Shown here in pieces: positions 1-17,380 of a stretch of DNA of 32,000 bases (position 1 is the stretch's first letter; every line of letters starts with the position of its first letter). The notes under the pieces are model-generated. The model did not search any database, was not told the DNA's origin, and worked only from the letters and a program-made list of their open reading frames with translations. The DNA comes from Candidatus Methylomirabilis oxygeniifera (GTDB taxonomy: Bacteria > Methylomirabilota > Methylomirabilia > Methylomirabilales > Methylomirabilaceae), in NCBI GenBank assembly GCA_000091165.1, contig FP565575.1, forward strand, positions 2,430,001 through 2,462,000, in the 5' to 3' direction. The translations under genes were made by a program, and so were the position numbers.

Positions 1-1
1 G

Positions 2-346
2 AGTAACTTCAAGGCCGATTTCTTCAAGGCGCTGGCGCATCCGCTGAGGATCTCGATCCTGGATGCGTTGCGCACCGGAGAGCTGACGGTGAATGAGATC
101 AGTCGGCAATTTGGCGTCGAGCCAGCCAATGCCTCGCAGCAGCTTGCAGTCCTTCGCAATAAGGGGATTGTGGTGGCCCGTAAGGAGGGGTCGAGCGTCT
201 ACTACTCCGTGAGCGACCCGGCCATCTTTAAGCTGCTTGATGCGGCGAGAGAAATCTTTAACAACCATCTGATCGGCGTTCGCGGGATGCTTGAAGAGAT
301 ACGACTCGAACAGACGCAGACGCCCAAGCGCCGCGGAGAGAGATAG
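2..346 (+). CDS. ArsR/SmtB-family transcriptional regulator (5' partial; the frame is open to the window edge)
   Basis: Translation from nt 2 reads SNFKADFFKALAHPLRISILDAL..GELTVNEI...ANASQQLAVLRNKGIV..RKEGSSVYYS. This is the classic ArsR winged-HTH signature (HPxRxxIL, QHLxxL-like recognition helix, VYY wing). Confidence 0.85.
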   Translation, partial: SNFKADFFKALAHPLRISILDALRTGELTVNEISRQFGVEPANASQQLAVLRNKGIVVARKEGSSVYYSVSDPAIFKLLDAAREIFNNHLIGVRGMLEEIRLEQTQTPKRRGER

Positions 347-387
347 AAACATCGCCGCAGTAAGGTTATAGGAGAACTCAGACTGAG

Positions 388-906
388 ATGTTGGCACTGC
401 TGAGAAAGATCTGGACCACACCGGTGGTGGCTGAGCCGCTGGCACCGACAGATGACGACAGACAGATCGAGGCCATCGCGCGGCAGGTCGATGATCGCGC
501 AAGACGACTCTTCGGCCGCTCGCTCCACATCCGGGAAGTGGATGCGGGCTCGTGCAACGGGTGCGAGCTGGAGATCGGGGCGCTGAATAATCCCTACTAT
601 GACTTAGAGCGGTTTGGAATGCATTTCGTCGCCTCACCGCGCCATGCGGATTGCCTGCTGGTCACGGGCCCGGTCACACGCAATATGGCCGACCCCCTCA
701 AACGGACCTATGACGCAACCCCCGACCCAAAGATCGTCGTCGCCGTCGGTGACTGCGCCAGGGATTGCGGAATCTTTGCAGGCGGCTATGGAGTAGTAGG
801 ACCGGTGTCAGCCATTGTGCCGGTCGATGTGGTCGTCGGCGGCTGCCCGCCGTCCCCGTCGATGATCCTGGCCGGGATCCTGGCAGCGCTCGAAAGGCGC
901 ATGTAA
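388..906 (+). CDS. NuoB/HycG-HyfI-like small subunit of a group-4 hydrogenase-related complex
   Basis: Motifs GSCNGCELEI, ASPRHADCLLVTGPVT, VAVGDCA and GGCPPSP are present. This is the four-Cys pattern that binds the N2-type [4Fe-4S] cluster in NuoB/HycG homologues. Confidence 0.85.
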   Translation: MLALLRKIWTTPVVAEPLAPTDDDRQIEAIARQVDDRARRLFGRSLHIREVDAGSCNGCELEIGALNNPYYDLERFGMHFVASPRHADCLLVTGPVTRNMADPLKRTYDATPDPKIVVAVGDCARDCGIFAGGYGVVGPVSAIVPVDVVVGGCPPSPSMILAGILAALERRM

Positions 907-911
907 ATAAG

Positions 912-1060
912 TATTAACAATCTCATTATTGAATCGACTTCCATTGAGAAAATCTCCCCTCGCCCCTCTTTTTCAAAGAGGGGTTAACCCTCCCTTTGGC
1001 AAAGGGAGGTGAGGAGGGTTTGTTTGATAATGTAAAACTATTATGGCGAGACTGTTAATA
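912..1060. repeat. MITE/REP-like insertion in the gap between the small-subunit gene and the hyfB-like gene
   Basis: Imperfect terminal inverted repeats: TATTAACAATCTC (912-924) versus the reverse complement of GAGACTGTTAATA (1048-1060), 12/13 identical. They enclose two G/C-rich hairpins (CCCCTCTTT-ttc-AAAGAGGGG and CCCTCCCTTT-ggc-AAAGGGAGG). The outer flanks are AT-rich. Confidence 0.5.
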
Positions 1061-1082
1061 TGTTCAGCACAAGGATGGCTCG

Positions 1083-3122
1083 GTGACAATGGCGCTCAGT
1101 GAAGCGGTGACGCTGAATTTACTGCTCCTGACGCTCGGGGGCTTTGGCGTCGGCGCGGCAGGGGCGGTGCTGGCAGCGCGCCACCCGCGCGTCTCGCGAT
1201 TAGCGGGGCACGCGTGCGCGCTTATCGGCGCCGTGGGCGCCCTGGCGCTCGGCGCGGCAGGCCTGGCAGGCAGTACACTGGACGTGATGGTCCCAGCGCT
1301 CCTCCCTGTTGGCGGACTCTCTCTCGGCATGGATCGCCTTAGCGCGTTCTTTGTCCTGGTAATCGCGGTCGCAGCGATCCCATCTACAGTCTATGCCATC
1401 ACCTATACCCGCGCCTATGAAGGAAAATCGTCACTGGCGGGGATGGGGCTCGGGTTCAACGCCTTCCTCGCCGGGATGGTGCTCGTCGTGTTGGCCCGCA
1501 ACGTACTGACGTTCCTGGTCATGTGGGAGGCGATGTCGCTGGCGTCGTATTTCCTCGTAATGACAGAGGCTGAGCATAGGGACACGCAGGATGCGGGCTG
1601 GCTCTATCTGGTGACAACGCATGCAGGCTTCGCGTGTCTGCTGATCGGCTTTCTCGTTATGGCGCATGGGACCGATACGATGAACCTGAGTGAATGGCGC
1701 GCCGCATCAGCGACATTAAGCGGCCCAATGCGCCATGCGGTCTTCGTCCTGCTGGCGCTCGGCTTTGGGGCAAAGGCAGGCGTGGTGCCCTTGCATATCT
1801 GGCTCCCTAAGGCCCATCCGGCAGCGCCCAGTCACGTCTCTGCCATGATGTCAGGGGTGATGATCAAACTTGGTATCTACGGGCTTATTCGGATCGGGTT
1901 CGATTGGCTCGGGGTCGGCGCATCCTGGTGGGGCGGTGCAATACTGGTCGTCGCGGCGGTGAGCGCGGTACTCGGCGTCCTGTATGCGTTGGTAGAGTCC
2001 GACCTCAAATGCCTGCTCGCGTATTCCAGCGTCGAGAATATCGGCATCATTCTGCTCGGGGTGGGGGCTGGGATGCTGTTCCAGAGTTACCACCTCGACA
2101 CCCTGGCCTCGCTGGCGCTGGTTGCGAGTCTGTACCACACCGTGAATCACGCCATATTTAAACCCCTCCTCTTCATGGGCGCCGGCGCCGTTGTGCATGC
2201 GACCGGAACCCGCAATATAGAGGAGATGGGCGGCCTTATCAAGCGGATGCCGCAGACTGCCGCCTATTTCCTTGTCGGATCGGTGGCGATTGCGGCGCTG
2301 CCGCCGTTCAACGGCTTTATCAGCGAATGGCTGATATTTCAGTCGCTGCTCCTCAGCTTCCAGATCTCGGCAACAGGAACCAATCTGCTCTTCGCGCTGT
2401 CGATCGCCGCGCTCGCGCTCACCAGTGGGCTCGCGGCGGCTTGCTTCGTGAAGGCCTTCGGGATTACCTTTCTGGCGCTCCCGCGCAGTGAACGGGCCGA
2501 GCAGGCGCGGGAGGCGCCGCGGATGATGCGCGGAGCGATGGGGATATCGGCGGTCGCATGCCTGGCGCTCGGGGTCGCGCCGGTGGGCATTGTGCGCCTC
2601 CTAAATACGACAGTAGCCGATCTGACAGGCGCGCAGGCGGATGTGCACTTCAACTGGAACGTCATTGTCGCGAATGATGCGTTCGCCGTCGTATCGCCGC
2701 TGTGGATTGCGGTCGCATTAATCTTGTTGCTCGCGCTGATTCCGATGGTCTTGCGCGTCCTCGGCGCGACCGCGGCGCGGCGCGCGTACGAGACATGGGG
2801 GTGCGGGCGCGCACTGCAGACGTCGCGCTTTGAATATACCGCGACGGCGTTCGCCAATCCGTTCAAGCGCGTGTTTGGTCTGTTGTACCGTCCGGTGAAG
2901 GAGCTGGACATACAGTTCCATCCGGAATCCCGAATGTTCGTAGAAACCATCGCCTACCGCAATGAGACGCGCTCCATATTCGAGGAGGCGCTGTATGGCC
3001 CGATGTCCAGGCTGGTACAGCGCGGCGCGCAGCGGGCGCGTATTGTCCAGTCGGGGAACGTGCATCTGTATTTATTGTATATCTTTGTGGCGCTGGTGGT
3101 CCTGCTGGCGCTGGCGGGTTAA
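1083..3122 (+). CDS. HyfB/NuoL-like antiporter-type membrane subunit (proton-conducting membrane transporter family)
   Basis: 679-aa polytopic protein with WEAMSLASYFLV, GAKAGVVPLHIWLPKAHPAAPSHVSAMMSGVMIKLGIYG and LAYSSVENIGIIL, typical of the NuoL/M/N-HyfB family. GTG start at 1083 lies 7 nt after AAGGA; an alternative ATG is at 1089. Confidence 0.85.
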   Translation: MTMALSEAVTLNLLLLTLGGFGVGAAGAVLAARHPRVSRLAGHACALIGAVGALALGAAGLAGSTLDVMVPALLPVGGLSLGMDRLSAFFVLVIAVAAIPSTVYAITYTRAYEGKSSLAGMGLGFNAFLAGMVLVVLARNVLTFLVMWEAMSLASYFLVMTEAEHRDTQDAGWLYLVTTHAGFACLLIGFLVMAHGTDTMNLSEWRAASATLSGPMRHAVFVLLALGFGAKAGVVPLHIWLPKAHPAAPSHVSAMMSGVMIKLGIYGLIRIGFDWLGVGASWWGGAILVVAAVSAVLGVLYALVESDLKCLLAYSSVENIGIILLGVGAGMLFQSYHLDTLASLALVASLYHTVNHAIFKPLLFMGAGAVVHATGTRNIEEMGGLIKRMPQTAAYFLVGSVAIAALPPFNGFISEWLIFQSLLLSFQISATGTNLLFALSIAALALTSGLAAACFVKAFGITFLALPRSERAEQAREAPRMMRGAMGISAVACLALGVAPVGIVRLLNTTVADLTGAQADVHFNWNVIVANDAFAVVSPLWIAVALILLLALIPMVLRVLGATAARRAYETWGCGRALQTSRFEYTATAFANPFKRVFGLLYRPVKELDIQFHPESRMFVETIAYRNETRSIFEEALYGPMSRLVQRGAQRARIVQSGNVHLYLLYIFVALVVLLALAG

Positions 3123-3128
3123 GGGCGG

Positions 3129-4073
3129 ATGCTCACACAGATTCTGATCGAAACGATCCAATTACTCATCGTCGGACTTGGCGCACCGCTCCTGGTGGGG
3201 CTGGTTCGGCGGGTGAAAGCCAGACTCCAGGGTCGGCGAGGGGCCGGCCTGCTGCAGCCATACGCCGATCTCCGCAAGCTTCTGGCAAAAGAGGCGGTCG
3301 TGTCGGAGACCACCTCGTGGATCTTTCGGTTTACTCCGTACCTGCTTGCGGCCACGATGCTGCTCTCCGCGCTTCTTGTCCCGCTGCTCACAACCCGGAC
3401 ACCGCTCGGCTTTCTCGGCAACATCATCGTGCTGATGTACCTGTTCCTGCTGGGCACCTTCTTTCTGGCCCTGGCGGGTCTGGATGCCGGCAGTGCGTTC
3501 GGCGGTATGGGATCGAGCCGTGAGATGGCCGTGGCCGCGCTGGCTGAGCCGACCGTAATGATTGCGATCTTCGCGATAGCCTTACGGGCCGGCAATACCG
3601 GTCTCGATGAGATCATCAGGCGCGGCGCAGCCGATTCGCTGTTGCTGCTGACCCCCGGGCATCTGCTGGCATTTATGGCGTTCTTCATCGTGGCGATTGC
3701 AGAGACTGGACGATTGCCGGTTGACAATCCTGCGACGCACCTGGAGCTGACGATGATTCATGAGGCGATGGTGCTGGAGTACTCGGGGCGGCACCTCATG
3801 CTGATCGAGTGGGCGGCAGGGATGAAGCTGCTGATCTTCCTGGCGCTGCTCTCGAACTTATTCTTTCCGTGGGGCGTTGCGCTGACGGTGACGCCGCCGG
3901 CGCTGGCGGTGGCCTTCGTCGCGTTGGTCGCGAAGGTGAGCGTGCTCGCAGTGGGGATCGCGGTGCTCGAAACGGCGGTGGCCAAGTTGCGGCTGTTCCG
4001 CCTGCCGGCGCTGCTGAGCGGATCGTTTGCGCTCGCCCTGTTGGCCGTCATCTCGTTTTTATTCGTCAAATAG
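3129..4073 (+). CDS. HyfC/HycD/NuoH-like membrane subunit
   Basis: 314-aa polytopic protein. It has the RRVKARLQGRRGAGLLQPYADLRKLLAKE loop, GSSREM, and IAETGRLPVDNPATHLELTMIHEAMVLEYSG (the NuoH/HycD E..P.D..E.E.EL signature). Confidence 0.85.
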   Translation: MLTQILIETIQLLIVGLGAPLLVGLVRRVKARLQGRRGAGLLQPYADLRKLLAKEAVVSETTSWIFRFTPYLLAATMLLSALLVPLLTTRTPLGFLGNIIVLMYLFLLGTFFLALAGLDAGSAFGGMGSSREMAVAALAEPTVMIAIFAIALRAGNTGLDEIIRRGAADSLLLLTPGHLLAFMAFFIVAIAETGRLPVDNPATHLELTMIHEAMVLEYSGRHLMLIEWAAGMKLLIFLALLSNLFFPWGVALTVTPPALAVAFVALVAKVSVLAVGIAVLETAVAKLRLFRLPALLSGSFALALLAVISFLFVK

Positions 4074-4082
4074 GTTGGGTGA

Positions 4083-4742
4083 ATGGTGACCGAACTCTTT
4101 CCAAGGCTGGTGACGTTACTCTCGTTCGCAACGCTGGGCGCGGCGTTTCTGCTGATCGTGCGCCGGGACCTCGCCGGACAGGTCCGGATATTCGCGGGGC
4201 AATCGTTGATCCTGGCCATTACCGCGGGGGTCGTCGCCGCATTCACGAGAAGCGTTGCATTGGCCAGTGTCGCGCTGGCGCTGGCGCTCTTAAAGGTAGT
4301 CGTCATTCCGCGCGTACTCAATCGCGCGGTGGCCAAGATCGGGTTACAACGGGCCGCCTTGCCGTATCTGGGCACGCCCGCGACGCTGGTGGTGTGCGGA
4401 GGCCTGGTGGTGATCGCATTTTACGTGATGGCCCCTGTCGCTGCGTCAAATCCGCTCCCTACCGCGGAGGCTATTCCGATCGCCTTTGCCGGCGTACTCA
4501 TCGGCTTTTTTGTAATGGTGAATCGCCGACGCGCACTGACGCAGATCCTCGGCTTCTTAATGCTGGAGAACGGCATATTTCTGCTTGCGCTGCTGGCCAC
4601 CTATGGGGTGCCGTTCATCGTGGAAATGGGCGTATTCCTTGATGTGCTGGTGGCCGTGCTGATCATGGAGGTATTCATCTATCGCATCAAAGAGAATTTT
4701 GATTCGACTGAGGTGGACCGATTGGGGAGGCTGAAGGGGTAA
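4083..4742 (+). CDS. HyfE-like small membrane subunit (NuoK-related)
   Basis: 219-aa hydrophobic protein containing LTQILGFLMLENGIFLLAL. Its position between the HyfC-like and HyfF-like genes matches hyf-type clusters. The stop overlaps the next start (TAATG). Confidence 0.7.
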   Translation: MVTELFPRLVTLLSFATLGAAFLLIVRRDLAGQVRIFAGQSLILAITAGVVAAFTRSVALASVALALALLKVVVIPRVLNRAVAKIGLQRAALPYLGTPATLVVCGGLVVIAFYVMAPVAASNPLPTAEAIPIAFAGVLIGFFVMVNRRRALTQILGFLMLENGIFLLALLATYGVPFIVEMGVFLDVLVAVLIMEVFIYRIKENFDSTEVDRLGRLKG

Positions 4743-6199
4743 TGCTTATCGCGCTGGTGCTGATGCCGCTGGCCGCTGCGGCCATCCTGATGCTGGTACG
4801 CCCACGGGCGTGGCTCGAGTGTATCCACGCGCTCGCGGCGCTTAGTGGACTGGCCGCCGGTCTCATGGTTGCTGCGCGGGTATGGGGGGGCGAGATGCCC
4901 ACTGCCGTCGGGGGACTGCTTCGCGCGGATGGGCTCTCGGCGTTGATGGTCGTCGTGATCACCCTGGTGGGGGCGATCGCCGCGCTGTACGGAATTGGCT
5001 ATATCCGGGCGGAATATGACGACACCCATCTGACACGCGTACGCAGTTTCTTCGCGCTGTTTCACGTCTTCATCTTTACCATGCTCCTGGCAGTCACAAC
5101 CGATAACCTCGGTATCATGTGGGTGGCAATTGAAGGAACGACATTAGCGACAGCCTTTCTGGTGAACCTGCATAACACGCCCAAGTCGTTGGAGGCAGCC
5201 TATAAATACCTCATCCTCTCTTCGGTGGGCATTGCGCTCGCCTTTATCGGTACGGCGCTGATGTATTACGCCGGCGCCTCGCGCGCCGGCGAGATTGCGG
5301 TGAATTGGACCTCTCTCCGAGCCGCCGCATCATCGCTGAATCCCCAGGTCGTCCGGCTCGCCTTCGCCTTCATCCTCATCGGCTACGGGACAAAGGCCGG
5401 CCTGGCGCCGATGCATACGTGGCTGCCGGATGCCCACAGTGAGGCGCCTGCCCCGATCAGCGCATTGATGTCCGGCGTCCTGCTCAACGTGGGACTCTAC
5501 GCAGTAATGCGTTTCAAGGTGGTGACAGACATCGCGGTCGGCGCACACTTCGCCGGCCCCTGGCTGTTAGGCATCGGGCTGCTCTCACTTACAGTGGCCG
5601 CAATCTTTCTTATTGTACCGCGCAATTACAAGCGCATGCTGGCCTATTCAAGCGTCGAACACGTGGGCGTGATCTGCTTGGGATTAGGATTTGGGGGCTA
5701 CTGGGGCGTACTGGGCGCGCTCCTGCACGTGATCAATCATGCGCTGTCAAAGTCGTTGCTGTTTATCCTGTCGGGAAATATCCTGCTGAAATATCAGACC
5801 ACCGACCTTCGCCGGGTGCGCGGACTGTTGCGGGCGTCGCCGTTGACGGCCGGCGCATTTGCAGCGGGCACGCTTGCGCTGCTGGGCCTGCCCCCCTTCG
5901 GGCTGTTCATCAGTGAGTTTCTGATCTTTCGCGCGGGCGTGGAGAGCGGACCTCTGTGGGTCGTCATTCTGGGGGTGGCGCTGCTCGCCGTCATATTCGC
6001 CGGCATGCTCGGCAGCGTGAACCAGATGCTCTACGGAGCGCCCCCGGACAATATGGAACACGGGGATCCGCTCAGGTGGTCGCTGGCGCCGCTGGTAGTC
6101 AATTTCTCCTTATTGCTTGTACTCGGGCTGACGTTCCCGCACGCAGTGGCTGAGGCCCTCGAACAGGCGCTGAGGGTGCTCGGGGTGTCCCATGCCTGA
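4742..6199 (+). CDS. HyfF/NuoM-N-like antiporter-type membrane subunit
   Basis: GTKAGLAPMHTWLPDAHSEAPAPISALMSGVLLNVGLYA and LAYSSVEHVGVI motifs. Overlaps the downstream gene by 8 nt. Confidence 0.85.
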   Translation: MLIALVLMPLAAAAILMLVRPRAWLECIHALAALSGLAAGLMVAARVWGGEMPTAVGGLLRADGLSALMVVVITLVGAIAALYGIGYIRAEYDDTHLTRVRSFFALFHVFIFTMLLAVTTDNLGIMWVAIEGTTLATAFLVNLHNTPKSLEAAYKYLILSSVGIALAFIGTALMYYAGASRAGEIAVNWTSLRAAASSLNPQVVRLAFAFILIGYGTKAGLAPMHTWLPDAHSEAPAPISALMSGVLLNVGLYAVMRFKVVTDIAVGAHFAGPWLLGIGLLSLTVAAIFLIVPRNYKRMLAYSSVEHVGVICLGLGFGGYWGVLGALLHVINHALSKSLLFILSGNILLKYQTTDLRRVRGLLRASPLTAGAFAAGTLALLGLPPFGLFISEFLIFRAGVESGPLWVVILGVALLAVIFAGMLGSVNQMLYGAPPDNMEHGDPLRWSLAPLVVNFSLLLVLGLTFPHAVAEALEQALRVLGVSHA

Positions 6200-7775
6200 T
6201 CTGAACGGTGTCGCCCGGCAGCTTCGCGCGACGGCGCTGAAGCTGACCGACCTTCGGGTGTACCCTCCGCGGGAGGTGCGAGTCAACATCGAACGGGATG
6301 AGCTACCTCCGTTTGCCGATTATGTGCGTGACAGGTTTTGCGCGAAGCCTGAACTGATCGTGGCGGAGGATACACGCGCAGAGCGCGGGGCCTTTACGTT
6401 GCGCTACCTCTTCGAACTCGAAGGCGTGGATCTGTTCATCGTCGCGTCGGCGGCAGTCCTGGAGAACGACCGTCGATTTCCGTCGCTTGCAACGCGCTGG
6501 TATCTGGCCAGTCGCTTCGAGCGCGAGATGCATGATCTGTTCGGCCTTCTACCGACCGGTCACCCCGACCTGCGTCGTCTGCCGTTGCATCAGTTCTGGC
6601 CCGCAGCCTATCACCCGCTGCTGAAGGACGCCCCATCGCCCCCTGCATTTGCGGATGATGGTACGCCCTTCCCGTTTCGCCGCGTGGAGGGCGAGGGGAT
6701 CCATGAGATCACCGTCGGCCCGGTGCATGCAGGCATTATCGAGCCGGGCCATTTCCGGTTCAGTGTCGAGGGCGAGACCATCGTGAATCTCGAGTCCCGG
6801 CTCTATTTCGTGCACAAGGGGATCGAGCGGCTCTTTGAGACAGTCCCGCTCATCCGCGGGGTGGAGCTGGCTGAACGGATTTCCGGCGACAGCAGCGTGG
6901 CGCACGCGCTCGCGTTCTGCCAGGCGCTCGAATCGCTGACGGCGCTACAGATCCCGCCTCGCGCGGCCTACCTGCGTGTGGCGCTGCTTGAATTGGAACG
7001 GCTCTACAATCACATCGCGGATGTCGGCGCGATCTGCACGGATACCGGCTTTGCGGTCGCAAATACGCATGCCATGAGGATTCGTGAAGATATACTGCGT
7101 CTGAATGCCCGATTAGCCGGCCATCGTCTGCTTCGCGGAACGCTGATCGCGGGCGGTGTGAGGTGTGACTTCACGGCAGAGCAGATCGCCGATGCGCGGG
7201 AGACGGTGAGGCGCGCAGTCAGTGACTTCGACGAGGTGGTGGAGATCGCGCTGAATAACGGTCTGGTGCTGGACCGCCTGCACGGGACAGGGCACCTGTC
7301 GAATCAGACCGCGCGCGAGCTGCAGGTCGTCGGGCCGGCGGCGCGCGCCAGCGGGATCGATCGGGATGCCAGACGGGATCATCCCTTTGCCGCGTATGCG
7401 GATCTGCCGCCGCATGTGCCGGTGTACAGTGAAGGCGATGTCTGGGCGCGACTGATGGTGCGGGTAGAGGAGGCGCGCGAGGCCGCTCATCTGATCATGC
7501 GCGCATTGGGCGAGATCCCCGAGGGTAAGGTCTCGGCGCCGCTCCCGGCATTGCCGGCGGGCGCGAGCGGGTTCGGTCTGGTTGAGGGGTGGCGCGGGCC
7601 GATCTGGCACTGGCTTGTCGCCGGCGAGCAGAATCGGCTTACGCGCGCGAAGATCAAAGATCCGTCATTCGCCAACTGGCCGGCGCTTCATTACGCCATC
7701 CTGAAAAACATCGTGCCGGATTTTCCGCTCGTCAATAAAAGCTTCAACCTGTCGTACGCGGGCAACGATTTGTAG
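6192..7775 (+). CDS. Fused NuoC-NuoD / HycE-HyfG-like large subunit lacking the [NiFe] cysteine ligands
   Basis: The N-terminal part carries FEREMHDLFGL..GHPDLRRL, as in the NuoC 30-kDa domain. The C-terminal part carries ITVGPVHAGIIEPGHFRF and LERLYNHI, as in the NuoD/large-subunit fold. SGDSSVAH (6882-6905) sits where CGxCxxxH is expected. The C-terminus NLSYAGNDL (7746-7772) sits where DPCxxCxxR is expected. Confidence 0.85.
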   Translation: MPDLNGVARQLRATALKLTDLRVYPPREVRVNIERDELPPFADYVRDRFCAKPELIVAEDTRAERGAFTLRYLFELEGVDLFIVASAAVLENDRRFPSLATRWYLASRFEREMHDLFGLLPTGHPDLRRLPLHQFWPAAYHPLLKDAPSPPAFADDGTPFPFRRVEGEGIHEITVGPVHAGIIEPGHFRFSVEGETIVNLESRLYFVHKGIERLFETVPLIRGVELAERISGDSSVAHALAFCQALESLTALQIPPRAAYLRVALLELERLYNHIADVGAICTDTGFAVANTHAMRIREDILRLNARLAGHRLLRGTLIAGGVRCDFTAEQIADARETVRRAVSDFDEVVEIALNNGLVLDRLHGTGHLSNQTARELQVVGPAARASGIDRDARRDHPFAAYADLPPHVPVYSEGDVWARLMVRVEEAREAAHLIMRALGEIPEGKVSAPLPALPAGASGFGLVEGWRGPIWHWLVAGEQNRLTRAKIKDPSFANWPALHYAILKNIVPDFPLVNKSFNLSYAGNDL

Positions 7776-7822
7776 GCTCGTGTGTCCCGAACCTTTCACT
7801 CCTTTCAAGTTCTGTTCTGACC

Positions 7823-8215
7823 CGTCATTCCGCCTGCCTGTGCGTCTCTGCACGCAGACAGGTGCTTGACACGCCTGCCCCGTACTGGATACGGGGGAAT
7901 CCAGTCGAGCCCTCTGCATACCGGCGCCTGCCCCGGACTCCGATCCGGGGTCCGCCGGGTATGACGCACTCGCGGCAAGCCGCGGGGAATGAACCCTCTG
8001 AGGATTTAAGCCTGCTGGAGGAAGTACCATCGGCTAACAACCCTTTTTCACACATCATTGCAAGCCGAAGGCGAAGCAATCTCACCGTTCTTCATGACCC
8101 GCAGAGCAAAACGGGTGGATTGCCACGCTCCCGTTGGTCGCTCGCAATGACGACGCTACCGGGCCGATCTCTCGGCGAGGACTGCAAGTACATGGGGACA
8201 CTCCCCCGGAGCCCC
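7823..8215. repeat. Array of REP-like palindromic units in the intergenic tract
   Basis: Several independent stem-loops. CCCCGTA-ctgga-TACGGGG. CCCCGGA-ctccga-TCCGGGG, nested inside CATACCGGCG...CGCCGGGTATG. The ATTGCAAGC..GCAATCTC / GGATTGC..CTCGCAATGACG unit (8057-8152). GGACACT..AGTGTCC (8196-8225). ORFs across this tract translate to typical REP junk such as ...SQ*/AMT-like endings. Confidence 0.6.
8057..8152 (+). repeat. ATTGCRAGC...GCAATCTC / GGATTGC...CTCGCAATGACG element, copy 1
   Basis: Same bipartite box arrangement and orientation as 17381-17454. Four ATTGC/GCAAT boxes form two small hairpins. Confidence 0.6.
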
Positions 8216-8236
8216 GGTAGTGTCCTAATTTGAAAG
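8216..8236 (+). repeat. Left 21-bp direct repeat flanking the low-GC island
   Basis: GGTAGTGTCCTAATTTGAAAG versus GGTAGTATCCTGATTTGGAAG at 17172-17192. 18/21 are identical and all three differences are G/A transitions. Confidence 0.6.
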
Positions 8237-8304
8237 GGCCTCCCCTGCGGGCGGCATAGGAATTGCTTGACAAGTCATGAGTTCTCGTCATGTCATGATT
8301 TTGC

Positions 8305-8334
8305 TTGACAGGGTAGCAAGAACATATATATAAA
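8305..8334 (+). promoter_or_regulatory. sigma70-like promoter candidate upstream of pyrF
   Basis: TTGACA (8305-8310), then a 17-18 nt spacer, then ATATAA/TATAAA (8328-8334). It lies about 65 nt upstream of the first ATG. TTGCTTGACA occurs twice (8263-8272 and 8301-8310). Confidence 0.45.
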
Positions 8335-8397
8335 TATCCCCAACGTGTGTGACTATATTGATTCAATATACGTGATGCCTAATTTGGAAAGGGGTGA

Positions 8398-9222
8398 ATG
8401 ATGAGTGTCAAATTAGCGTCTCCCCCATTATCCACCGAATCCGATACGGCACACAAAGAGGTCTACCGTTCCAACAAGGTCAACATGCATATCAAAGCCA
8501 ACGAGCGTTTGATCCTCGCCCTCGATGTTCCACTAGGAAGGCCGCATGGGTTAATTGAACTGTCCGATGCTCGTGCGCTCGTGGAGCAATTAGACGGTGT
8601 CGTGTCATTCTTCAAGATCGGCTGGCCGCTCTATATGGCTGGAGGGCAGGCGCTTATTCCAGAGCTCGTTAATAAAGGCAAACGGGTCTTCTTGGATCTG
8701 AAGTTCGGTGACATTCCTGAAACGATCAAGAGACTCGTGCTTGTAGCTAGAGATCATGGCGTCAGTTTTATTACAGTGAACACCAGCTTTGATGCCGTGC
8801 GGGCTGCCGTGGCAGTGCGAGGCGAATCCGATCTGAAGATTCTGACGGTAACTGTTCTCACAAGCCTAGCAGATGCGGACTTGCGGGAAATGGGCGTTGA
8901 TACCGATGTTGAGACGTTGGCTCTATACAAAGCCAAGAAGGCGAGTGAATTTTGTGATGGCGTCATTGCTTCTGGAAAGGAAGCTGCGCTCATTCGTCAG
9001 AACGTACGCAAGGATTTCTTAATTGTGACGCCCGGCATTCGGCCTGTTGGGCGTGCACACGACGATCACAAAAGGGCGACAACGCCAACTGAAGCAATCA
9101 GTGCAGGGGCCGACTACTTGGTCGTTGGACGACCCATTACGCAAGCTGAGAATCCCCGGAATGCCGCCGCTAAGATCATCACAGAGATGCAAGACGCCTT
9201 CGATGCTCTCGCCAAGCCGTGA
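8398..9222 (+). CDS. pyrF: Orotidine 5'-phosphate decarboxylase
   Basis: LILALDV, FFKIGWPLY, FLDLKFGDIPETI, TVTVLTS, FLIVTPGIRP and GADYLVVGRPI are the catalytic and phosphate-binding motifs of the PyrF family. The N-terminal 29 aa look non-homologous, so ATG 8485 (MHIKANERLILALDV) is a plausible true start. Confidence 0.9.
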   Translation: MMSVKLASPPLSTESDTAHKEVYRSNKVNMHIKANERLILALDVPLGRPHGLIELSDARALVEQLDGVVSFFKIGWPLYMAGGQALIPELVNKGKRVFLDLKFGDIPETIKRLVLVARDHGVSFITVNTSFDAVRAAVAVRGESDLKILTVTVLTSLADADLREMGVDTDVETLALYKAKKASEFCDGVIASGKEAALIRQNVRKDFLIVTPGIRPVGRAHDDHKRATTPTEAISAGADYLVVGRPITQAENPRNAAAKIITEMQDAFDALAKP

Positions 9223-9313
9223 TAAGTTGTAGCTTTATCGTCGCATTGGTTGCGGTCTAGCGAGATAAGGTTGCCACAACATCTCCTGGTTCTCTACCTC
9301 TGTAGTGGAATCC

Positions 9314-9730: not shown

Positions 9731-12271
9731 CTATTCCAGCAATACCTCGTTCAGCTTGGCTTCCCATTCGTCCTCGTCCAGAACCTCGAAGCGGAGCACC
9801 TTGTCTTTCATCTCAAGCCCGAGTTCGTTCCAGTTCCGGGACTTCGCCTGCCGGGTGCAAATGTCGAACACCTTGCGGATGTAATTGGTCTTGGCGTTGT
9901 CCTTCAGGTGCAGACCCTTGGTTTCAACCACGTAAACGCGCTCGTAATCCGTGTGAGTGGTCCTGTCGGTTGCCGTGAAAATAAAGTCTGGATAAATCCG
10001 GTGCTCCCGCCATCCCTGGATCGAGTAGTCATGCCTTGCGCGATTTCGGAACCAGAAGAAAAGCCGATGCTGGTTCTCTAGATACCAGGCAACCGCTTTC
10101 TCGGTCTCGTTGAAGTCATCCTCCGGTACCGCCTCGTAAAGACTGAACTCAAGCTGCCCACCCTTCTCCCTTGTCAGACGCTTTGAAGTTGGCTTGATAG
10201 CAATAGATTTCGGGAAAGACCAATCGAGGTTGTTGCCGATGATCAGGAAACGAAGCTCGTCCTTTTCCAGCATCGAACAGAAAACCCGCTCGGCCAGTCG
10301 GTCTTTCTCGGCTTCAAGTTGCTTCCGCAGTTCTTCGATCAGGAAAACAAAGTTATTGGCAATAAGCCGCTCAGTATCCAGCTTGCCGCCTATCTTACGG
10401 AAATGGTTCAAGACCTGCTGGGCGAATTCGTGTGCTTGCCAGGGGTTCGGCACGACGTCACCGATCTGTCGCGTCATAAAGACCGGATCAACGCGGATAC
10501 CGCCTTCCCTCAAATCGTGAATGCCTCTGGCTTCAATCACTCGATGCCTGTCATCGGTCAGCGTGACGCCGATTTCAACGTCTTTCTCCTCGTACTCGGA
10601 AAGCGTCAATTGCAAGACCGGCGTCAACGTCACTTCATCCCACGGAATCCGAGCCGCAATATCCATGTCGTAGTTGACGGGCCTCCAGCCGTGGCTGTTC
10701 CTGACCATGAAAACTGGGAGAATCGCTCGACCGGCAGCCATCTTGAAGCGTTCGCGCATGTCGAAAAGCTGGTCCATGCCGTCGCCGGGCATACCGCCGT
10801 ATTCGTCTTCTGTGGCGATATGTCCGCGCAAATCGCCCAAACCTTCCTGGGCAAAGCCGTCACGAATGCTTTCCAACAATGCATTGGCGCGTTGCTGAAA
10901 GCAAAACACATAGCTTTCGTCGAGATCCCGGACTTGGGTCTTTCGCGCGTAGGGTTGTCTCAGAATACGACCGACAAGCTGGGTCAAGGCGTTCTGTGAG
11001 GATGGATTCGTCAGAATCGCGAGCACGTAAGCGAACGAGCAGTCCCAACCCTCTTGAAGGGCCTGCTTGGTGATGATGTAGCGGATTTTGCAGTCCCGAC
11101 CGAGCAGCCCGCCTATATCGTCAACTTCCTTGAGTTCATCCTTTTCGCTCGTTTTGACCGCGATCTGTTCCGCCGGGACGCCCATAACCTTCGTCAAATG
11201 TTCCCGGACTTGCTCCGAATGAATGTACCGTCCGCCCTCTTGATTCTTCCCTGTGCGCTCCACTTGAATCAGGCAGATCGGGCGGATGTATATGCCCGTG
11301 TTCGCCTCGTATTCCTTGGCCTTTTCCTCCAGCACGTTCCGCTTGTTCACTCCGGCAAGCAGGGTGTCTTTCCAGTCCGGGCTTGCCTTGTTTACGACGT
11401 GGAGATCCAACTTGATCATTTCCTCATGGTGCAATTCTCGGCCTGCGATGTCCACGAGGATATTGCTTTGAACCGGCGTCGCCGAAAGTTCGGCAACTAG
11501 GCAAGGATTAAACCCGCGCAAGGTCTCCTGTGCCCCATCACTGTAAGCCTTGTGCCCTTCGTCGAGTATAATAACCGGCGAAAGTGTTCTGAGAGTGTTC
11601 CCCAATGACGTTTTGATTTGCCGACCCCAAAAGCCGCTTTGCTTCTCGTAGGTGTCCAGATTTGGGAAGCGTGTGAGCGTGGCCTCTTGCGCGATGATGT
11701 CATCCTCTGGCGGAAAAAAGTCCTGAAAACCGCCGCTGTCCTTGAAGACCTTCAAGGTCTCTTTCGTCTTCCGGTTGGCCGATGGAAGCATGAGCATCAG
11801 TACGATAAGATTTTCCTGCACATCCAGCGGGGCAAAGTGGTCCGTCTTTTCGAGAATCAGCGTGTGCCCACCGCTTGCCAGGTCCAGATGTTGGCGGTAC
11901 GGGTGATCCCGGTCTTTCAGGCACTGAATCGTCTGGCGGTAAATCTGTGTTGTCGGGACAATCCAGAGCACAAGCCCCGTCTGGCGTTTCCGGTAGATCG
12001 TATTCACGAGGTCAATCGTCTTGACCGCCAGCAGCGTTTTGCCACCCCCGGTCGGAAGTTTAAGACAGAATGTCGGTAATGCCTGGCCTAGTCCATTTTT
12101 GTGCGGCAGATACCGGCGCGGAAGTTTAGCCTTCTCCCATGCCTTCGCCGCAAAGTCAAAGGCCATGTCGGGATCAGTTATGCCTTCGGCCTTCTTCTTC
12201 AGATCGGCCAGAAGTTCAAGGTAACTCCTAATCCCGGCTAACGCTCTTTGCTGGTATTCCTTCAGTCGCAT
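9731..12271 (-). CDS. Type III restriction enzyme Res-like subunit (SF2 helicase plus C-terminal PD-(D/E)xK-like nuclease)
   Basis: Helicase motif I LPTGGGKT (aa 72-79), motif II ILDEGH (aa 235-240), motif III LSATP, motif V-like QEGWDC, and motif VI QLVGRILRQ. The C-terminal YPDFIF...VVETKG is a PD...ExK nuclease-like motif. The start lies 3 nt downstream of the mod stop. Confidence 0.8.
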   Translation of the reverse strand: MRLKEYQQRALAGIRSYLELLADLKKKAEGITDPDMAFDFAAKAWEKAKLPRRYLPHKNGLGQALPTFCLKLPTGGGKTLLAVKTIDLVNTIYRKRQTGLVLWIVPTTQIYRQTIQCLKDRDHPYRQHLDLASGGHTLILEKTDHFAPLDVQENLIVLMLMLPSANRKTKETLKVFKDSGGFQDFFPPEDDIIAQEATLTRFPNLDTYEKQSGFWGRQIKTSLGNTLRTLSPVIILDEGHKAYSDGAQETLRGFNPCLVAELSATPVQSNILVDIAGRELHHEEMIKLDLHVVNKASPDWKDTLLAGVNKRNVLEEKAKEYEANTGIYIRPICLIQVERTGKNQEGGRYIHSEQVREHLTKVMGVPAEQIAVKTSEKDELKEVDDIGGLLGRDCKIRYIITKQALQEGWDCSFAYVLAILTNPSSQNALTQLVGRILRQPYARKTQVRDLDESYVFCFQQRANALLESIRDGFAQEGLGDLRGHIATEDEYGGMPGDGMDQLFDMRERFKMAAGRAILPVFMVRNSHGWRPVNYDMDIAARIPWDEVTLTPVLQLTLSEYEEKDVEIGVTLTDDRHRVIEARGIHDLREGGIRVDPVFMTRQIGDVVPNPWQAHEFAQQVLNHFRKIGGKLDTERLIANNFVFLIEELRKQLEAEKDRLAERVFCSMLEKDELRFLIIGNNLDWSFPKSIAIKPTSKRLTREKGGQLEFSLYEAVPEDDFNETEKAVAWYLENQHRLFFWFRNRARHDYSIQGWREHRIYPDFIFTATDRTTHTDYERVYVVETKGLHLKDNAKTNYIRKVFDICTRQAKSRNWNELGLEMKDKVLRFEVLDEDEWEAKLNEVLLE

Positions 12272-12274
12272 CCG

Positions 12275-14041
12275 TCACCGCGTGAGTTCGTAAATCTCAT
12301 AGGGCAACTGCGCAAAATCAATCCGAAACTGGTCAAGGTGTTCTTGGTCCAGATACTTGGTCGGTGCGAAGACCAGCCGACGTTTGTCCTTCTTTAGGGG
12401 CGGCAGACTCTTCGCCATGTCCAGCGTCAATGCCAAATTTTTCAACTTCGCAACGTCGGGCTCATAGAAAAGGAAAACCTGGTAATTCCGACTCTCGCCG
12501 ATGAAGCGCCTCTTTTCGTTAATTGCCCTCTCGTCGAATTCCTCGCCGGTCGCCGTGTAGAAAACGTAACGGGCAAGTTCTTCGTAGGTCGGCAAGCCGT
12601 TGCCATCGAGGATGCTTTCAAGTTCGATGGCCTTGCCGAGCTTGAAGAAGCTGAACGAACCGCCGAGGCCCTTTCTCAGAGCCTCGTCCTTCGATATCGG
12701 CACACCCTTGATTACGCGCCGAACACGCTCCGCTGTAATGGAATCCGCATAGTCTTCGCACTCAACCAGAATGAAGCGGCGAGAGCCCTTGTCGGACTCA
12801 TTCAAAGCAAGGACGGCGTGGCCGGTAGTGCCAGTGCCAGCGAAGGAGTCAAGAACAAGGGCGCGTTGGTTTCCTTGAGTGACATATCGAATCAGACGAG
12901 CAAGAACCTCATGGTCTTTGGGATTCTCGAACACTTTCTTGCCGAAAATGCTGACAAGCACGTTTGTTGCCTGCAAAGCGCTCCTGTAAAAGTAACTCCC
13001 CGCAACCTGGATGCCGATATCCGATGCGTCCTCTTCTTCGCCATTTCCGTTACTCTCAGGAGACAAAGAGCGCACGAGATACGTTTTCCGAATGGGTGGT
13101 TCTGTGTGATCCTCGCGGAAGACGACAACGCCAGCGGCAATCATCTCATTCATCTTCTCAATCGTGGCATATCGCCAGCCACCTTCCGGCACCACACAAG
13201 GTTTGCGTGTCTTGGGATGGATTACATCGTAAGAAGGACCGCCGCCGCCCGGCCATGACATATTGTCATCACGCCACACGCCATTATCATCGACATTTCC
13301 GTACCGCGAATGCTTCTTCGATGGGTGGTTCTTGGGGAGTTGTTTGTAGAAGTCACGTAATCCTTCCTGAATAGCATTGCTGTCGCTGCCATGTAGCGCA
13401 CGAAGGCGAAGGTATTCGTCCTGAATCTCTTTCGCGCCCGGCTTGTCTTCGCGCCAAATGGTTTTGCGCTGTTTAAGCGTGTCCATCGACCGGGCATAAA
13501 TCAGGATGTACTCATGGCCCACGGAAAACAGTTTGGCATCGTTTTTTCGGCCCTTCTCGCAGACCAATTGGGCAATGAAATTCTCCTCGCCGAAAACCTC
13601 GTCCATGAGACAACGAAAATGGTGCGCCTCGTTGTCGTCAATCGAAACCATAATGACACCTTCGCTCTTCAGTAGGTCTTTAAGAATCTTCAGCCGGGGC
13701 ATCATCATGCAGAGCCACTTGTCATGTCGGGTCAGGTCCTCTCGGTCAACGACCTTGCCCAGCCAGTCCTGCATCATGGGCGAATTAACGCTGTCATTAT
13801 AGGCCCACTTTTCATTGCCCGTGTTGTACGGGGGATCAATGTAGATACAGTCGATCTTCCCGGCGTAAAGCGGAAGGAGCGCCTTCAGTGCCTTAAGGTT
13901 ATCGCCGTAGATAATCAGGTTGTCATGCAGAGTCACCTTGTCCGTCAGGCTCTTGGCCTTGACCGGGACAAGTTCGTGATACTTCACTAGCAAATGATGA
14001 TTCTGCACGAACGTTTTGCCCTTAAACTGTAGTTGCGCCAT
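12275..14041 (-). CDS. Type III-like Mod DNA methyltransferase (beta-class N6A/N4C)
   Basis: Motif IV DPPY (aa 69-72, IYIDPPYNTG) precedes motif I FAGTGTT (aa 400-406), which is the beta permutation. A long variable region between them is consistent with a target-recognition domain. The mod-then-res gene order is typical of type III systems. Confidence 0.8.
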   Translation of the reverse strand: MAQLQFKGKTFVQNHHLLVKYHELVPVKAKSLTDKVTLHDNLIIYGDNLKALKALLPLYAGKIDCIYIDPPYNTGNEKWAYNDSVNSPMMQDWLGKVVDREDLTRHDKWLCMMMPRLKILKDLLKSEGVIMVSIDDNEAHHFRCLMDEVFGEENFIAQLVCEKGRKNDAKLFSVGHEYILIYARSMDTLKQRKTIWREDKPGAKEIQDEYLRLRALHGSDSNAIQEGLRDFYKQLPKNHPSKKHSRYGNVDDNGVWRDDNMSWPGGGGPSYDVIHPKTRKPCVVPEGGWRYATIEKMNEMIAAGVVVFREDHTEPPIRKTYLVRSLSPESNGNGEEEDASDIGIQVAGSYFYRSALQATNVLVSIFGKKVFENPKDHEVLARLIRYVTQGNQRALVLDSFAGTGTTGHAVLALNESDKGSRRFILVECEDYADSITAERVRRVIKGVPISKDEALRKGLGGSFSFFKLGKAIELESILDGNGLPTYEELARYVFYTATGEEFDERAINEKRRFIGESRNYQVFLFYEPDVAKLKNLALTLDMAKSLPPLKKDKRRLVFAPTKYLDQEHLDQFRIDFAQLPYEIYELTR

Positions 14042-14052
14042 GAAGACCTCGC

Positions 14053-17000
14053 TTAATCATTGTGGGCAAACCGGTATTTGCGCTCCCGCGCAAGAAATGC
14101 ATCCTTCCCGCCTTCAAGAATCTTGGTTACCCGTTCGCGCACGCTCTCATTATCGATGCCACCTTCCCCGGCAATGTGTCCCCTGATTTGAGGAAGCCCA
14201 TCTTCGGGGCTTTCTCTGGGTTCAGTGTCCAGAACGACGATTTTTTCACTTTCGGCGTTGACCAGCATATTGGCGTTATGGGTTGCAAAAATGATCTGTT
14301 GCTGGTGCTTCAGCTCTTGAATGGCCGGCAGAATGTCATTTGTGATGAATGCGTTGTCGAGGTCGTCTTCAGGTTGGTCAATCACCAGCAACCCATCGGT
14401 CTGCGCGAGCAAAATCAGGAAAAGTGCCGTTGCCTTTTGCCCAACGGATGCTTGCTGAATCGAGATGTAGTCTTCGGTATCAACTTTACGCCGCAATTCC
14501 ATGTTCACCGAGTCCGGGACGTACTGACATAGCAGCCGGCCGATTTGTTTGTCATCAAAGCTCGTCATCAAGTCCACCACTTTGGCAAGGATCGGCCCGG
14601 CCCACGAGCATGCCGTCGGTCCCTTGTCGGGGACGGTTCGTCCCAGGGTCTTGTCTTGGCCGTGCTCAAAAACAGCAAGCATGTAGTCCGCAAGTTCGGT
14701 CCACAATTCCGCGGGATGCGAGGACAAGGAACGAGCGGGCACTTCCTTTCGGATAGCTATCTCAAGCTGCTCTGCGTCTCGGCTGTTGAACTTGCGGCCA
14801 TCCTTGACGTACCCCTGAAAGTCCGAAATTGCCCGCCGGATGTCACCGGCATGGACAACCCTCATTCGCACGCGCTGCTTTGTGCTCGTTGTCAGGGCAT
14901 CGGCTAAGTTCACGTAGATCTCGCCCTCCTCGGATCGGCATTGCCGCAAACGGGAGACCAATTCGCGTCGCTGTGTACGTGCTTGGTTCAGCCGGGTATC
15001 CAGTTCGTCAAAGTGCGAGATGCGCGAGTCAATTTCCTGCAGCCGGGCCTGAAGAGGCTCAAGAAGAGTGAGGTTGATCTTATTGGCCTCCATCTCTTTC
15101 TTGGCTTCGCCGTATGCCACGGAATGCTCGGCGATTCGTTCGGTTATCAGCGCGTTCTCTGTGCTCTGCGCCAGAGCATCGGTATTTTTCAGCCAGGAAG
15201 TTGCCACGCCTCTGAGGGCAGCAATTAGGTCATCCACCTGCTTGAGAGCGGCGGTGCGCACGGTCAAAAGAGAGGATTCCGCGCCCGTTTGAGTATCAGG
15301 CAACGTCTTTGATGCGCGCCTCTTCTTATCCTCTATCGCTTTGACGGCCTTAGTCTGTTCGGCGTGGATGTCGCTCAGGGCAGCAAACAGATCGTTTCGT
15401 GCCGTTTCAAGAAGCGTGAACTGCTGATGTGACTGAAATGCCGGATGTGCAGCGCGACTCTTAATCTTAAGAAGTTCCTCGTTGAGGCGTGCGCGCTCCG
15501 CTACCAAACGCGGCTTCTGGATGAGTTCCAGTGCCCATGATGCCATATCCACAGAGAGTTTTTCGATTTCGTCCGCGAGTTGACGCGCTTGGCGCTCCTT
15601 CGCGTCCACCTGTGAGAGCTGGTCGGACTTCAGAAAGGAAAAGAGGTTGACTCCGCCCCGCCGTTCCGGGTCGAGCGAGAAAAATGACTCGTCACGGACT
15701 ATGTTGGCAAGTTCGCGTTGACCGAAAAATCTGAGATTCAACAGAGCCGACGGAGATCGCGTCGAGACCGGAACCCCGCCTTCGCAGCGTTCGTCCGCGC
15801 ATTCGAGGATTTCTGGTGGACCTTCTCCTTTTCGCCGGATGCGGTAGAACTTCTGACCGCCTTTAACGGAAAGGTCGATTTCTGTTTCGGGCAAGAGTGT
15901 GCCATCGGTCTTGTCCTCTTTCCGAAGCCATAAAATACCTTTATTTGGGCGGTCATACGTTTCACCGGCGCGCTGGTATTGGCAAGCGTGGGAAACGTAT
16001 TCGAGGAGGCAGGATTTGCCAGTGCCTCGTCCCCCTATGAGGCATGTCATGTGTGGGTTGAAGTCCAGTTGAAGATCGTCAAAGAAAACGGTTTTTCGGA
16101 CCCGCATACGGAGAATGGTCCAGTCTGGATCATGAAATATTGCTGGGGAAAGGAATGTCTTGTTGTTGAGGAGTGCCTGCCGAACTCCTTCAATCGTGAA
16201 ACTACCGAGTTTCACATAAGAAAGCATCGCAGGCTGGAGAGCGTCAAAGGTGCGCGCGTCTGAGGTCTGCAACCATGCAACGGGTGCGTCGGTGTAGTCT
16301 TCGAGCTCACCGTTGAGAACACGCTTAGTAAAATCATCCAGCTCAGTGTATGGCTTGCTTATTATGAAGCCATCGGCTAGTCCGACAACTTGACGGAAAA
16401 TGTTGCGGAGTCGGGTTGCCGTGTCTCGGTCTTCAAGGATGCCTTTGTGGCCAGTAGCAACAACAAGGGCAATGAGTCGAGAGCGGAAGCGGTCATGCGC
16501 TCGGTCCAACAGGCTACAGAGGTTCAATCTGCTTTCATGCCATCGCCCCTGTTGAAGTTCCAGACTCTCGTGGACACGGGTGTCCAGGTCATTGACCTCG
16601 TTGTCGTCCGGGTTTGCCAAAAGGATGACTTGGATTTGGTCGGATGAGGTTAGCTCATAACCGGGGAATACAACCGGGACATCTTGTCGTCCTGCTGCCA
16701 ACATGCGGCGCGCAACATCCCGTACGGTCTTTGCGCCACCGTGAAAGATGCTGTTGTGCTGTGGTATGCCAATAACCTGTCGACCCGACTGGAAAACTCG
16801 GGGCAAGTAATCCTCTTCAATGAACTGATCCAATGGCTTGTTGCCGGTCGGGTCTTGCCAGTCTGGGTGAGCGTGCAGGTGAAAATCACAGGCATAAGGG
16901 CGAGCGCCCAGCTTTTCCCGGTCACTGTCCCGAAATGAAACTCTCGAGTTATTCCTTGTCACTGCAAGACTCCTCATGGTCAAAATGTTAAGTCCACAGT

Positions 17001-17345: not shown

Positions 17346-17380
17346 TTCATGCTCATGGGTGTGCCGCAGGCGCATAGGAT

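Follow-up and report, generated by a model that had tools for sequence, protein, structure and literature searches.

The open reading frame (ORF) at positions 6192–7775 (+) of a 32,000-nucleotide stretch of the Candidatus Methylomirabilis oxygeniifera (M. oxyfera) genome (contig FP565575.1, positions 2,430,001–2,462,000; this whole stretch is here called ‘the window’) almost certainly encodes EhrL, the large subunit of a six-subunit energy-converting hydrogenase-related (Ehr) complex, as far as sequence can tell. Pfam, alignment to PDB entries and a structural model place the product among the HycE/HyfG-like large subunits, in which NuoC and NuoD are fused, and it is without the [NiFe] ligands. 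The explanation that we favour joins this identity to a complex that would still be an ion-translocating energy converter, and to the two together we would give a probability of about 0.55.

The gene (ehrL) starts with ATG, stops with TGA and specifies 527 amino acids, comprising an N-terminal Complex1_30kDa (NuoC) domain (Pfam, residues 31–149, E = 2.3e-17) and a C-terminal Complex1_49kDa (NuoD/hydrogenase large subunit) domain (residues 284–449, 3.5e-43). Among all PDB sequences, its top solved relative was Escherichia coli HycE (7z0s_E, E = 1.8e-77 over residues 84–524, 30% identity); NuoCD/Nqo4 (approximately 1e-36 to 1e-39), MbhL (7.5e-38) and MbsL (1e-29) matched more weakly, and the PDB copy searched contained no Ehr structure. 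Modelling with AlphaFold2 from 54 aligned sequences (mean predicted local distance difference test (pLDDT) 81.9, predicted template modelling score 0.86) likewise gave HycE 7z0s_E as the top fold in Foldseek (E = 4.9e-36, template modelling (TM) score 0.84), with fused NuoCD next (TM score 0.72–0.78); a first model, from an 18-sequence alignment (pLDDT 61.5), was discarded as too shallow. Domains, best match and fold all agree with the original prediction, made from the DNA letters and their ORFs, of a fused NuoC-NuoD/HycE-type large subunit. Homologues of EhrL number in the thousands, the close ones being from metagenome-assembled genomes (MAGs) of NC10, and this abundance, together with E-values of 1e-77, argues that the feature is not due to chance. 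The identical protein also occurs on contigs labelled M. oxyfera, those of the original enrichment run SRR023516 among them.

In the alignment with HycE, ‘DRVCGICGFAH’ pairs with EhrL ‘ERISGDSSVAH’ (residues 228–238, nt 6873–6905) and ‘SLDPCYSC’ pairs with ‘SFNLSYAG’, placing S231, S234, S521 and G524 at the four positions occupied by [NiFe] cysteines, exactly the Ser/Ser/Ser/Gly pattern that had been predicted. Thus ERISGDSSVAH is found instead of the group 4 L1 motif RxCGxCxxxH, with S231-G232-D233-S234 (6882–6893, +) in place of the N-terminal CGxC ligand pair, and NLSYAGNDL is found instead of the L2 motif [DE][PL]CxxCxx[RH], with N519-L-S521-Y-A-G524-N-D-L527 (7746–7772, +) in place of DPCxxCxxR; both assignments draw on the HycE alignment and on conservation. 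The coordinates first given for NLSYAGNDL were right; those for R-I-S-G-D-S-S-V-A-H required correction, since nt 6882 is the first Ser codon and the string begins at nt 6876. EhrL has four cysteines in total (residues 50, 243, 282 and 325) and no CxxC pair anywhere in its sequence, so the motifs have not merely shifted, and the claim of replaced ligands, against which a displaced pair would have counted, stands. Given Ser/Ser/Ser/Gly at the ligand positions, EhrL cannot hold a cysteine-ligated [NiFe] centre. The protein also terminates at L527, without the C-terminal extension on which endopeptidase cleavage would act.

With one genome scanned per species, 80 related loci were obtained, and the 150 best representatives of 50%-identity clusters of EhrL were compared. 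The motif of the beta1-beta2 loop, IEPGHFRF (residues 183–190; 6738–6761, +), was identical in 80/80 loci, whether the large subunit contained the cysteines or lacked them (Cys-less), and with it EhrL keeps Glu184, the proton-relay residue of group 4 hydrogenases. At D284 (7041–7043, +), where HycE alignment and family comparison find an Asp typical of the Cys-less family, the Cys-containing sisters have Gly and HycE has Phe; Asp is found in Nqo4 (Asp139) and in MbhL. The idea that Asp284 is a feature specific to complex I was rejected, MbhL having Asp there too. The quinone ligands of complex I are absent from EhrL, Nqo4 Tyr87 aligning with Gly232 and His38 with Ile183/Glu184. From these comparisons the former active site appears as a rebuilt polar, acidic pocket, conserved across phyla and made up of S231, G232, D233, D284, D490, S521, Y522, G524 and D526 beside the retained E184/H187 loop.

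This pocket is widespread. Approximately 70 of the 80 loci encode a Cys-less large subunit with ER[IV]SGD[ST/E/N]..H and NKSFN[LQ]SY[AS]GNDL, the latter exactly C-terminal; they come from NC10, Rokubacteria, Chloroflexi, Acidobacteria, Actinobacteria (Mycobacterium, Streptomyces, Nonomuraea), Nitrospirota, Firmicutes and the candidate phyla radiation (CPR) among bacteria, and from Thaumarchaeota, Methanomassiliicoccales and Methanosarcinales among archaea. The Cys-containing forms ERICGxCS..H and NKSFELCYxCxDR occur in seven loci, among them those of Thermincola, Desulfotomaculum and Ectobacillus, with the six subunits alike. Cluster representatives gave a similar picture: about 105/150 (approximately 70%) were Cys-less and 27/150 had all four cysteines, the Ser/Ser/Ser/Gly pattern of EhrL being the commonest class. 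In 18 homologues from several phyla, sharing 72–96% identity (72–75% between phyla), LAERISGDSS.AH and NKSFNLSYAGND were invariant. Across 91 diverse Cys-less representatives of the 50%-identity clusters, most of which kept the signature, mean column conservation for the protein was 0.47, compared with 0.93 at G232, 0.82 at D233, 0.86 at S521, 0.85 at Y522, 0.90 at G524, 0.99 at D526 and 0.96 at E184. Replaced positions conserved so far above the mean argue that Ehr is not a dead hydrogenase: by this measure the replaced site is not decaying and the complex is functional. A 2026 Geobacter paper calls Ehr ‘nonfunctional’ and assumes a hydrogenase-operon remnant drifting under relaxed selection, which would fit the loss of all catalytic ligands; however, operons of six intact genes and conserved length in 80 loci, 72–75% identity between phyla, and replaced positions that rank among the best conserved residues make drift exceedingly unlikely.

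Cys-containing and Cys-less proteins are told apart by residues 231 (C>S), 233 (D), 284 (G>D), 490–491 (SA>DP), 521 (C>S), 524 (C>G) and 527 (R>L). In a rough neighbour-joining tree, calculated with the ligand regions removed and without bootstrap, the Cys-containing sequences formed a grade at the base of a single large Cys-less radiation, to which the query belongs, indicating, though no more than indicating, that the family branches beside the Cys-containing six-subunit (group 4f-like) hydrogenases and not near complex I. The Cys-less radiation adjoins this grade, or sits inside it, an arrangement in keeping with a NiFe site that was lost as a derived trait. The sister hydrogenases of the 4f/Ehf-like type (Thermincola L027, Desulfotomaculum L073, Ectobacillus L036; 40–44% identity to the query) share with it the six subunits, the IEPGHFRF loop, the NKSF..Y..D C-terminal frame and the lack of an adjacent electron-input module, but have kept ERICGxCS..H and ELCYxCxDR. 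The original prediction had placed the protein in the Ehr family, which holds, and had described such complexes as evolutionary intermediates between hydrogenases and complex I, a phrase that these data do not bear out for this clade: EhrL is far closer to HycE than to NuoD, it is without the quinone ligands, and the rough tree sets it beside or within the Cys-containing grade.

The genes around ehrL encode the remainder of such a complex. It closes a unit of seven genes on the + strand, in the order arsR, ehrS, ehrA, ehrB, ehrC, ehrD, ehrL, in which neighbours overlap or lie ≤10 nt apart, except for 177 nt between ehrS and ehrA. The small subunit, EhrS (388–906, +; 172 aa), is NuoB/HycG/MbhJ-like (Pfam Oxidored_q6 2.7e-31; MbhJ 2.9e-39; HycG 4.9e-36) and keeps four [4Fe-4S] ligands, C56, C59, C123 and C153, in the Cys columns of MbhJ and HycG, corresponding to the proximal cluster of group 4 [NiFe]-hydrogenase small subunits. 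Two antiporter-like subunits are present. EhrA (1083–3122, +; start ATG at 1089 according to the gene caller in L081) is HyfB/NuoL-like with a C-terminal extension (Proton_antipo_M 3.4e-55), passes the cut-off of NCBIfam ‘hydrogenase 4 subunit B’ at 705 bits, and shows the charged motifs MWE, FGAKAG..HIWLPKAH, GVMIKLG and NHAIFKPLLF; EhrD (4742–6199, +) is HyfF/MbhH/NuoN-like (Proton_antipo_M 2e-57; MbhH 5.2e-43). Both keep the Glu of transmembrane helix 5 and the Lys of helices 7 and 12 that are found in antiporter-like subunits; in EhrD these align with MbhH, and the helix 8 position is Asn. EhrB (3129–4073, +) is a HycD/HyfC/NuoH-like membrane subunit (NADHdh 2.4e-45; HycD 7z0s_D 1.8e-50 over its full length) with the acidic NuoH-type loop retained, and EhrC (4083–4742, +) is HyfE-like, its C-terminal half NuoK-like with membrane Glu residues (NCBIfam ‘hydrogenase 4 membrane subunit’ 1.3e-26 and Pfam Oxidored_q2 5e-5, each below its cut-off). 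By sequence, then, the NuoH-like, NuoK-like and two antiporter-like subunits all keep their canonical charged residues. The first gene, arsR-like (1–346, +), is truncated by the window start; the full gene (L081, 3796–4155) encodes 119 aa and begins 13 nt upstream of the window, matching Pfam HTH_5/HTH_20 where called in L081 and L082, and the window ArsR is devoid of Cys and of any obvious metal site.

A large subunit lacking the [NiFe] cysteines, accompanied by NuoB-, NuoH- and HyfE-like subunits and two antiporter-like ones, is what defines an Ehr complex at sequence level, and the membership originally claimed is borne out in every one of these features. The possibility that ehrL is an ordinary NuoCD of respiratory complex I was considered, as Pfam names its domains Complex1_30kDa and Complex1_49kDa, NCBIfam NuoD-type models match it (every one under its curated cut-off), and public annotations give ‘NADH-quinone oxidoreductase subunit C’. 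It is refuted at the level of sequence and operon and is left with next to no probability: the HycE match (1.8e-77) dwarfs those to complex I (approximately 1e-36 to 1e-39), Tyr87 and His38 are missing, the partners match HyfB/C/E/F and HycD/HycG, and the cluster is not a canonical nuo operon, having only six structural genes and none of nuoA, E, F, G, I or J. Searches of all frames of the window found no CxxCxxCxxxC ferredoxin motif of the NuoI/HycF type, nor did the window contain genes for formate dehydrogenase or NuoEFG; hyp and endopeptidase genes were absent from the window and from 10 kb flanks.

The formate hydrogenlyase (FHL) of E. coli and hydrogenases-3 and -4 (HycE/HyfG; 7Z0S) share the NuoC-NuoD fusion and are the closest solved systems for both EhrL and EhrB, but their NiFe ligands, cleavable C-terminal extension, HycF/HycB ferredoxin-like subunits and FdhF are missing from the query locus. 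Complex I (NuoCD, Nqo4-Nqo5) resembles EhrL in its fold, in having no NiFe site, in Asp139, which corresponds to Asp284, and in an APSF motif comparable to P491-S-F; it differs in its far weaker similarity, in the ligands Tyr87 and His38, and in its NuoI, NuoEFG and NuoA/J subunits, for which the query locus has no genes. Pyrococcus furiosus MBS/Mbx (6U8Y), a respiratory complex, likewise derives from a hydrogenase and has no NiFe site, and its chemistry is proposed to take place at the NuoB-type cluster; MbsL is a distant relative, however, and the NuoI-like two-cluster subunit and extra Mrp subunits of MBS were not found in the window or in the 80 related loci.

Later papers credit the definition of Ehr complexes to Coppi (2005) and Marreiros et al. 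(2013). Work published between 2019 and 2025 on Margulisbacteria, CPR, comammox Nitrospira, ammonia-oxidising archaea and Nitrospirales describes Ehr without CxxC motifs and states that its function is unknown, in keeping with the original remark that its role is still open. In Geobacter, Nitrospira, ammonia-oxidising archaea, Margulisbacteria and CPR, the complexes combine a Cys-less group-4-type large subunit with NuoB-, NuoH- and antiporter-like subunits, as here, and nothing essential distinguishes the query from them, except that in its subclade the small-subunit gene comes first, with arsR ahead. We found no paper that deals with the ehr operon in Methylomirabilis and no expression data for M. 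oxyfera.

The related loci show two gene orders. The query shares the first, [arsR]-S-A-B-C-D-L, with Rokubacteria, Chloroflexi, Actinobacteria and CPR; the second, A-B-C-D-L-S, is that of the Cys-containing hydrogenases, Nitrospirota, archaea including Thaumarchaeota, and some Acidobacteria and Firmicutes. When ORFs of ≥80 aa in the ±10 kb flanks of the 80 loci were clustered, the sole recurrent neighbour was an ArsR-family gene (32/80), and its presence beside the cluster in very different phyla makes it probable that the signal sensed by ArsR is tied to the function of the complex. No formate dehydrogenase, NuoEFG, HycF, hyp gene or ferredoxin recurred in the same flanks, and no electron-input module lay adjacent to the Cys-containing sister hydrogenases. 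As a further observation, a Nitrospirota locus (L049, 4826–12142 and 12409–19874) and two others (L019, L056) carry tandem six-gene clusters of Ehr type, or an Ehr cluster beside a more distant cluster of NuoB/D/H type, which suggests paralogous specialisation.

The mycobacterial loci (L065, L074, L077–L079) have the arsR-S-A-B-C-D-L order of the window and a Cys-less large subunit (AERISGD..H and NKSFNLSYAGNDL) that is 47–50% identical to the query; the nearest named matches, from M. kansasii, M. marinum and M. kiyosense, are annotated ‘formate hydrogenase HycE’. In M. tuberculosis, Rv0081-Rv0087 have been described as EHR homologues, and Rv0081, the first gene of this hypoxia-linked operon, is reported to encode a Cys-free, metal-free ArsR repressor. 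The ‘formate hydrogenlyase-like’ locus Rv0081-Rv0087(88) (hycD/P/Q/E), which lies in the DosR/hypoxia regulon, resembles the window in having an ArsR without Cys or metal site. It differs in that the window has pyrF, and no Rv0088-like gene, after ehrL; hosts and physiology are unrelated, and the likeness to H37Rv is drawn through the literature and through other mycobacteria. By analogy, the Cys-free ArsR control and the mycobacterial precedent (Rv0081-Rv0088) suggest a role for Ehr when electron acceptors are limiting.

Taken by itself, the proposal that the complex is still an ion-translocating energy converter, working as a redox pump, is a tentative one, which we would put at rather less than even odds. 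The sole redox cofactor of the six-subunit machine would be the EhrS cluster, which implies that Ehr needs an external electron partner. An electron carrier encoded outside the operon, most plausibly ferredoxin, could dock directly on EhrS, at the site taken by HycF in FHL, and exchange electrons with the cluster. A second substrate, replacing H+/H2, would be handled at the EhrL/EhrS/EhrB interface; this might be a membrane quinone where the host has one, or another small polar acceptor. Changes of protonation in the Asp/Ser/Glu/His pocket may then power the membrane arm together with the conserved beta1-beta2 loop, and the reaction may be reversible, proton-motive force pushing electrons to a low-potential carrier. 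The locus has the look of a self-contained module, arsR being its only conserved neighbour and the Cys-containing sisters being built likewise. Quinone is a candidate partner in M. oxyfera; members in an Acetobacterium MAG and the missing complex I ligands argue that it is not the universal partner across the family.

Several observations weigh against an ion-translocating converter of this kind. The neighbourhood of the ehr locus points to no donor or acceptor; Gly232 in place of Tyr87 and the want of a His38 equivalent leave the EhrL pocket without the quinone ligands of complex I; and family members occur in hosts thought to be quinone-free, one example being an Acetobacterium MAG (L040), as A. 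woodii is not known to contain quinones. The model of EhrL falls below pLDDT 50 at residues 157–199 and 506–527, which are the two elements that form the pocket. Furthermore, although the query and nearly all related loci retain the four EhrS cysteines, five loci (Daviesbacteria L026, L035, Thermoleophilia L041, Saccharibacteria L044 and Bdellovibrionales L046) have lost three or four of them to Thr, Asp or Gly, yet retain the EhrL motifs SGD../..SY.GNDL. Such complexes would be without any recognisable redox cofactor, and the persistence of the EhrL motifs in them argues that the pocket can matter without electron transfer.

The same five loci favour a serious alternative, a machine that is independent of redox chemistry, namely an Mrp-like cation/proton translocator in which the EhrL/EhrS cap acts as gate, ion-loading site or ligand sensor and the Fe-S cluster is structural or senses redox state or O2. 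It would account for the single cofactor and the absence of an input module; the oxygen-rich pocket (Ser, Asp, Asn, Tyr, Glu) would suit binding of a cation or proton, and the membrane arm is akin to Mrp/MBH modules. Nevertheless, the query and most other loci by far, spanning wide phylogenetic distances, retain the EhrS cluster ligands, and Mrp runs without homologues of NuoB, NuoD or NuoH, so that a highly conserved peripheral module needs a reason; we regard such a machine as rather unlikely.

A residual hydrogenase activity has also to be weighed, in which the rebuilt pocket binds a non-cysteinyl metal or activates H2 in some other way. The only functional claim found in the Ehr-related literature, that of the Hyq ‘endo-hydrogenase’ of Azorhizobium caulinodans, is genetic and of this kind: deletion of hyqRBCEFGI alters H2 recycling and evolution in vivo, and its authors, noting that HyqG is without both CxxC motifs, propose an H2:quinone oxidoreductase whose catalytic site they admit is unknown. 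Hyq is like the query in its six structural subunits (homologues of HyfB, C, E, F, G and I), CxxC-less large subunit and four-Cys N2-type small subunit, and unlike it in having the small subunit last, another regulator and family-specific HyqG cysteines (258, 491 and 497) that EhrL lacks. A further point in favour is that the EhrL pocket is strongly conserved and rich in carboxylate and His residues. Against it stand the lack of biochemical evidence for any Cys-less hydrogenase of [NiFe] type, the absence of hyp and endopeptidase genes from the window and of a cleavable extension from EhrL, the report that M. tuberculosis, which has an orthologous locus, is without NiFe maturation genes, and the report that Nitrospira Ehr is not induced by H2. 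An activity of this sort in EhrL is highly unlikely.

A bolder proposal, and one that we consider quite unlikely, is that the pocket Ser-Gly-Asp...Asp284...Asp-Pro-Ser...Ser-Tyr-x-Gly-x-Asp-COOH constitutes a new functional centre within the shell of the NiFe site, as a non-cysteinyl metal site or as a cation/proton-loading site. If true, it would define a new class of energy converter, could work where the Fe-S cluster is missing, as it is in the variants from CPR, Thermoleophilia and Bdellovibrionales, and might explain the H2 phenotypes of the CxxC-less Hyq.

The ehr locus of M. oxyfera is a typical member of the already described Ehr family and not a new kind of system; a specialist would not be surprised to meet Ehr in this organism, where it offers a clean example and a possible model. 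What the comparison adds to the first reading of the DNA is the family-wide pocket signature, an ArsR-first gene order also seen in the hypoxia operon of mycobacteria, the placement beside Cys-containing six-subunit hydrogenases and the cluster-less variants. Hosts of Ehr drive the methane and nitrogen cycles (NC10, Nitrospira, ammonia-oxidising archaea), and in mycobacteria the orthologous operon lies within a hypoxia/dormancy programme. To solve an Ehr complex would close a gap both in bioenergetics and in what is known of how complex I arose, and the comparative signature supplies residues to mutate, through the rebuilt and invariant pocket, the Fe-S cluster that has been kept and the variants in which it is lost.

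The long junction within the operon contains a structured element (958–1025, +), seen in inverted repeats I1–I3 and in its RNA fold (−39.6 kcal/mol, z = −3.4). The 177-nt spacer between ehrS and ehrA is AT-rich, with the perfect hairpins CCCCTCTTT/AAAGAGGGG and CCTCCCTTTG/CAAAGGGAGG nested within a longer stem; the element occurs once in the window, and no Rfam match was obtained for it or anywhere in positions 1–9300. In the two closest genome loci the spacer is far shorter (81 nt in L001, almost none in L002). The element could be an attenuator, an mRNA-processing site or an insertion resembling repetitive extragenic palindromes that sets the stoichiometry of EhrS to the membrane subunits.

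Downstream of ehrL, the window continues with pyrF. No Pfam match was obtained for ORFs at 7862–8233 (+), 17353–18075 (−) and 30765–31715 (−), nor for a 205-aa ORF that lies, at 17578–22641 (+), with genes for a HAMP histidine kinase, a sigma-54-dependent response regulator, an extracytoplasmic function (ECF) sigma factor and a zf-HC2 anti-sigma factor. Directly past pyrF is an unrelated defence island (9731–17064, −) whose products include type III restriction (PADLOC REase_III, 5e-174) and methyltransferase (2e-151) enzymes, along with a 1003-aa ABC/SMC-like ATPase that has a partial PADLOC ‘Ppl’ match (4.6e-34) and weak matches to the ATPases GajA, AriA and PtuA.

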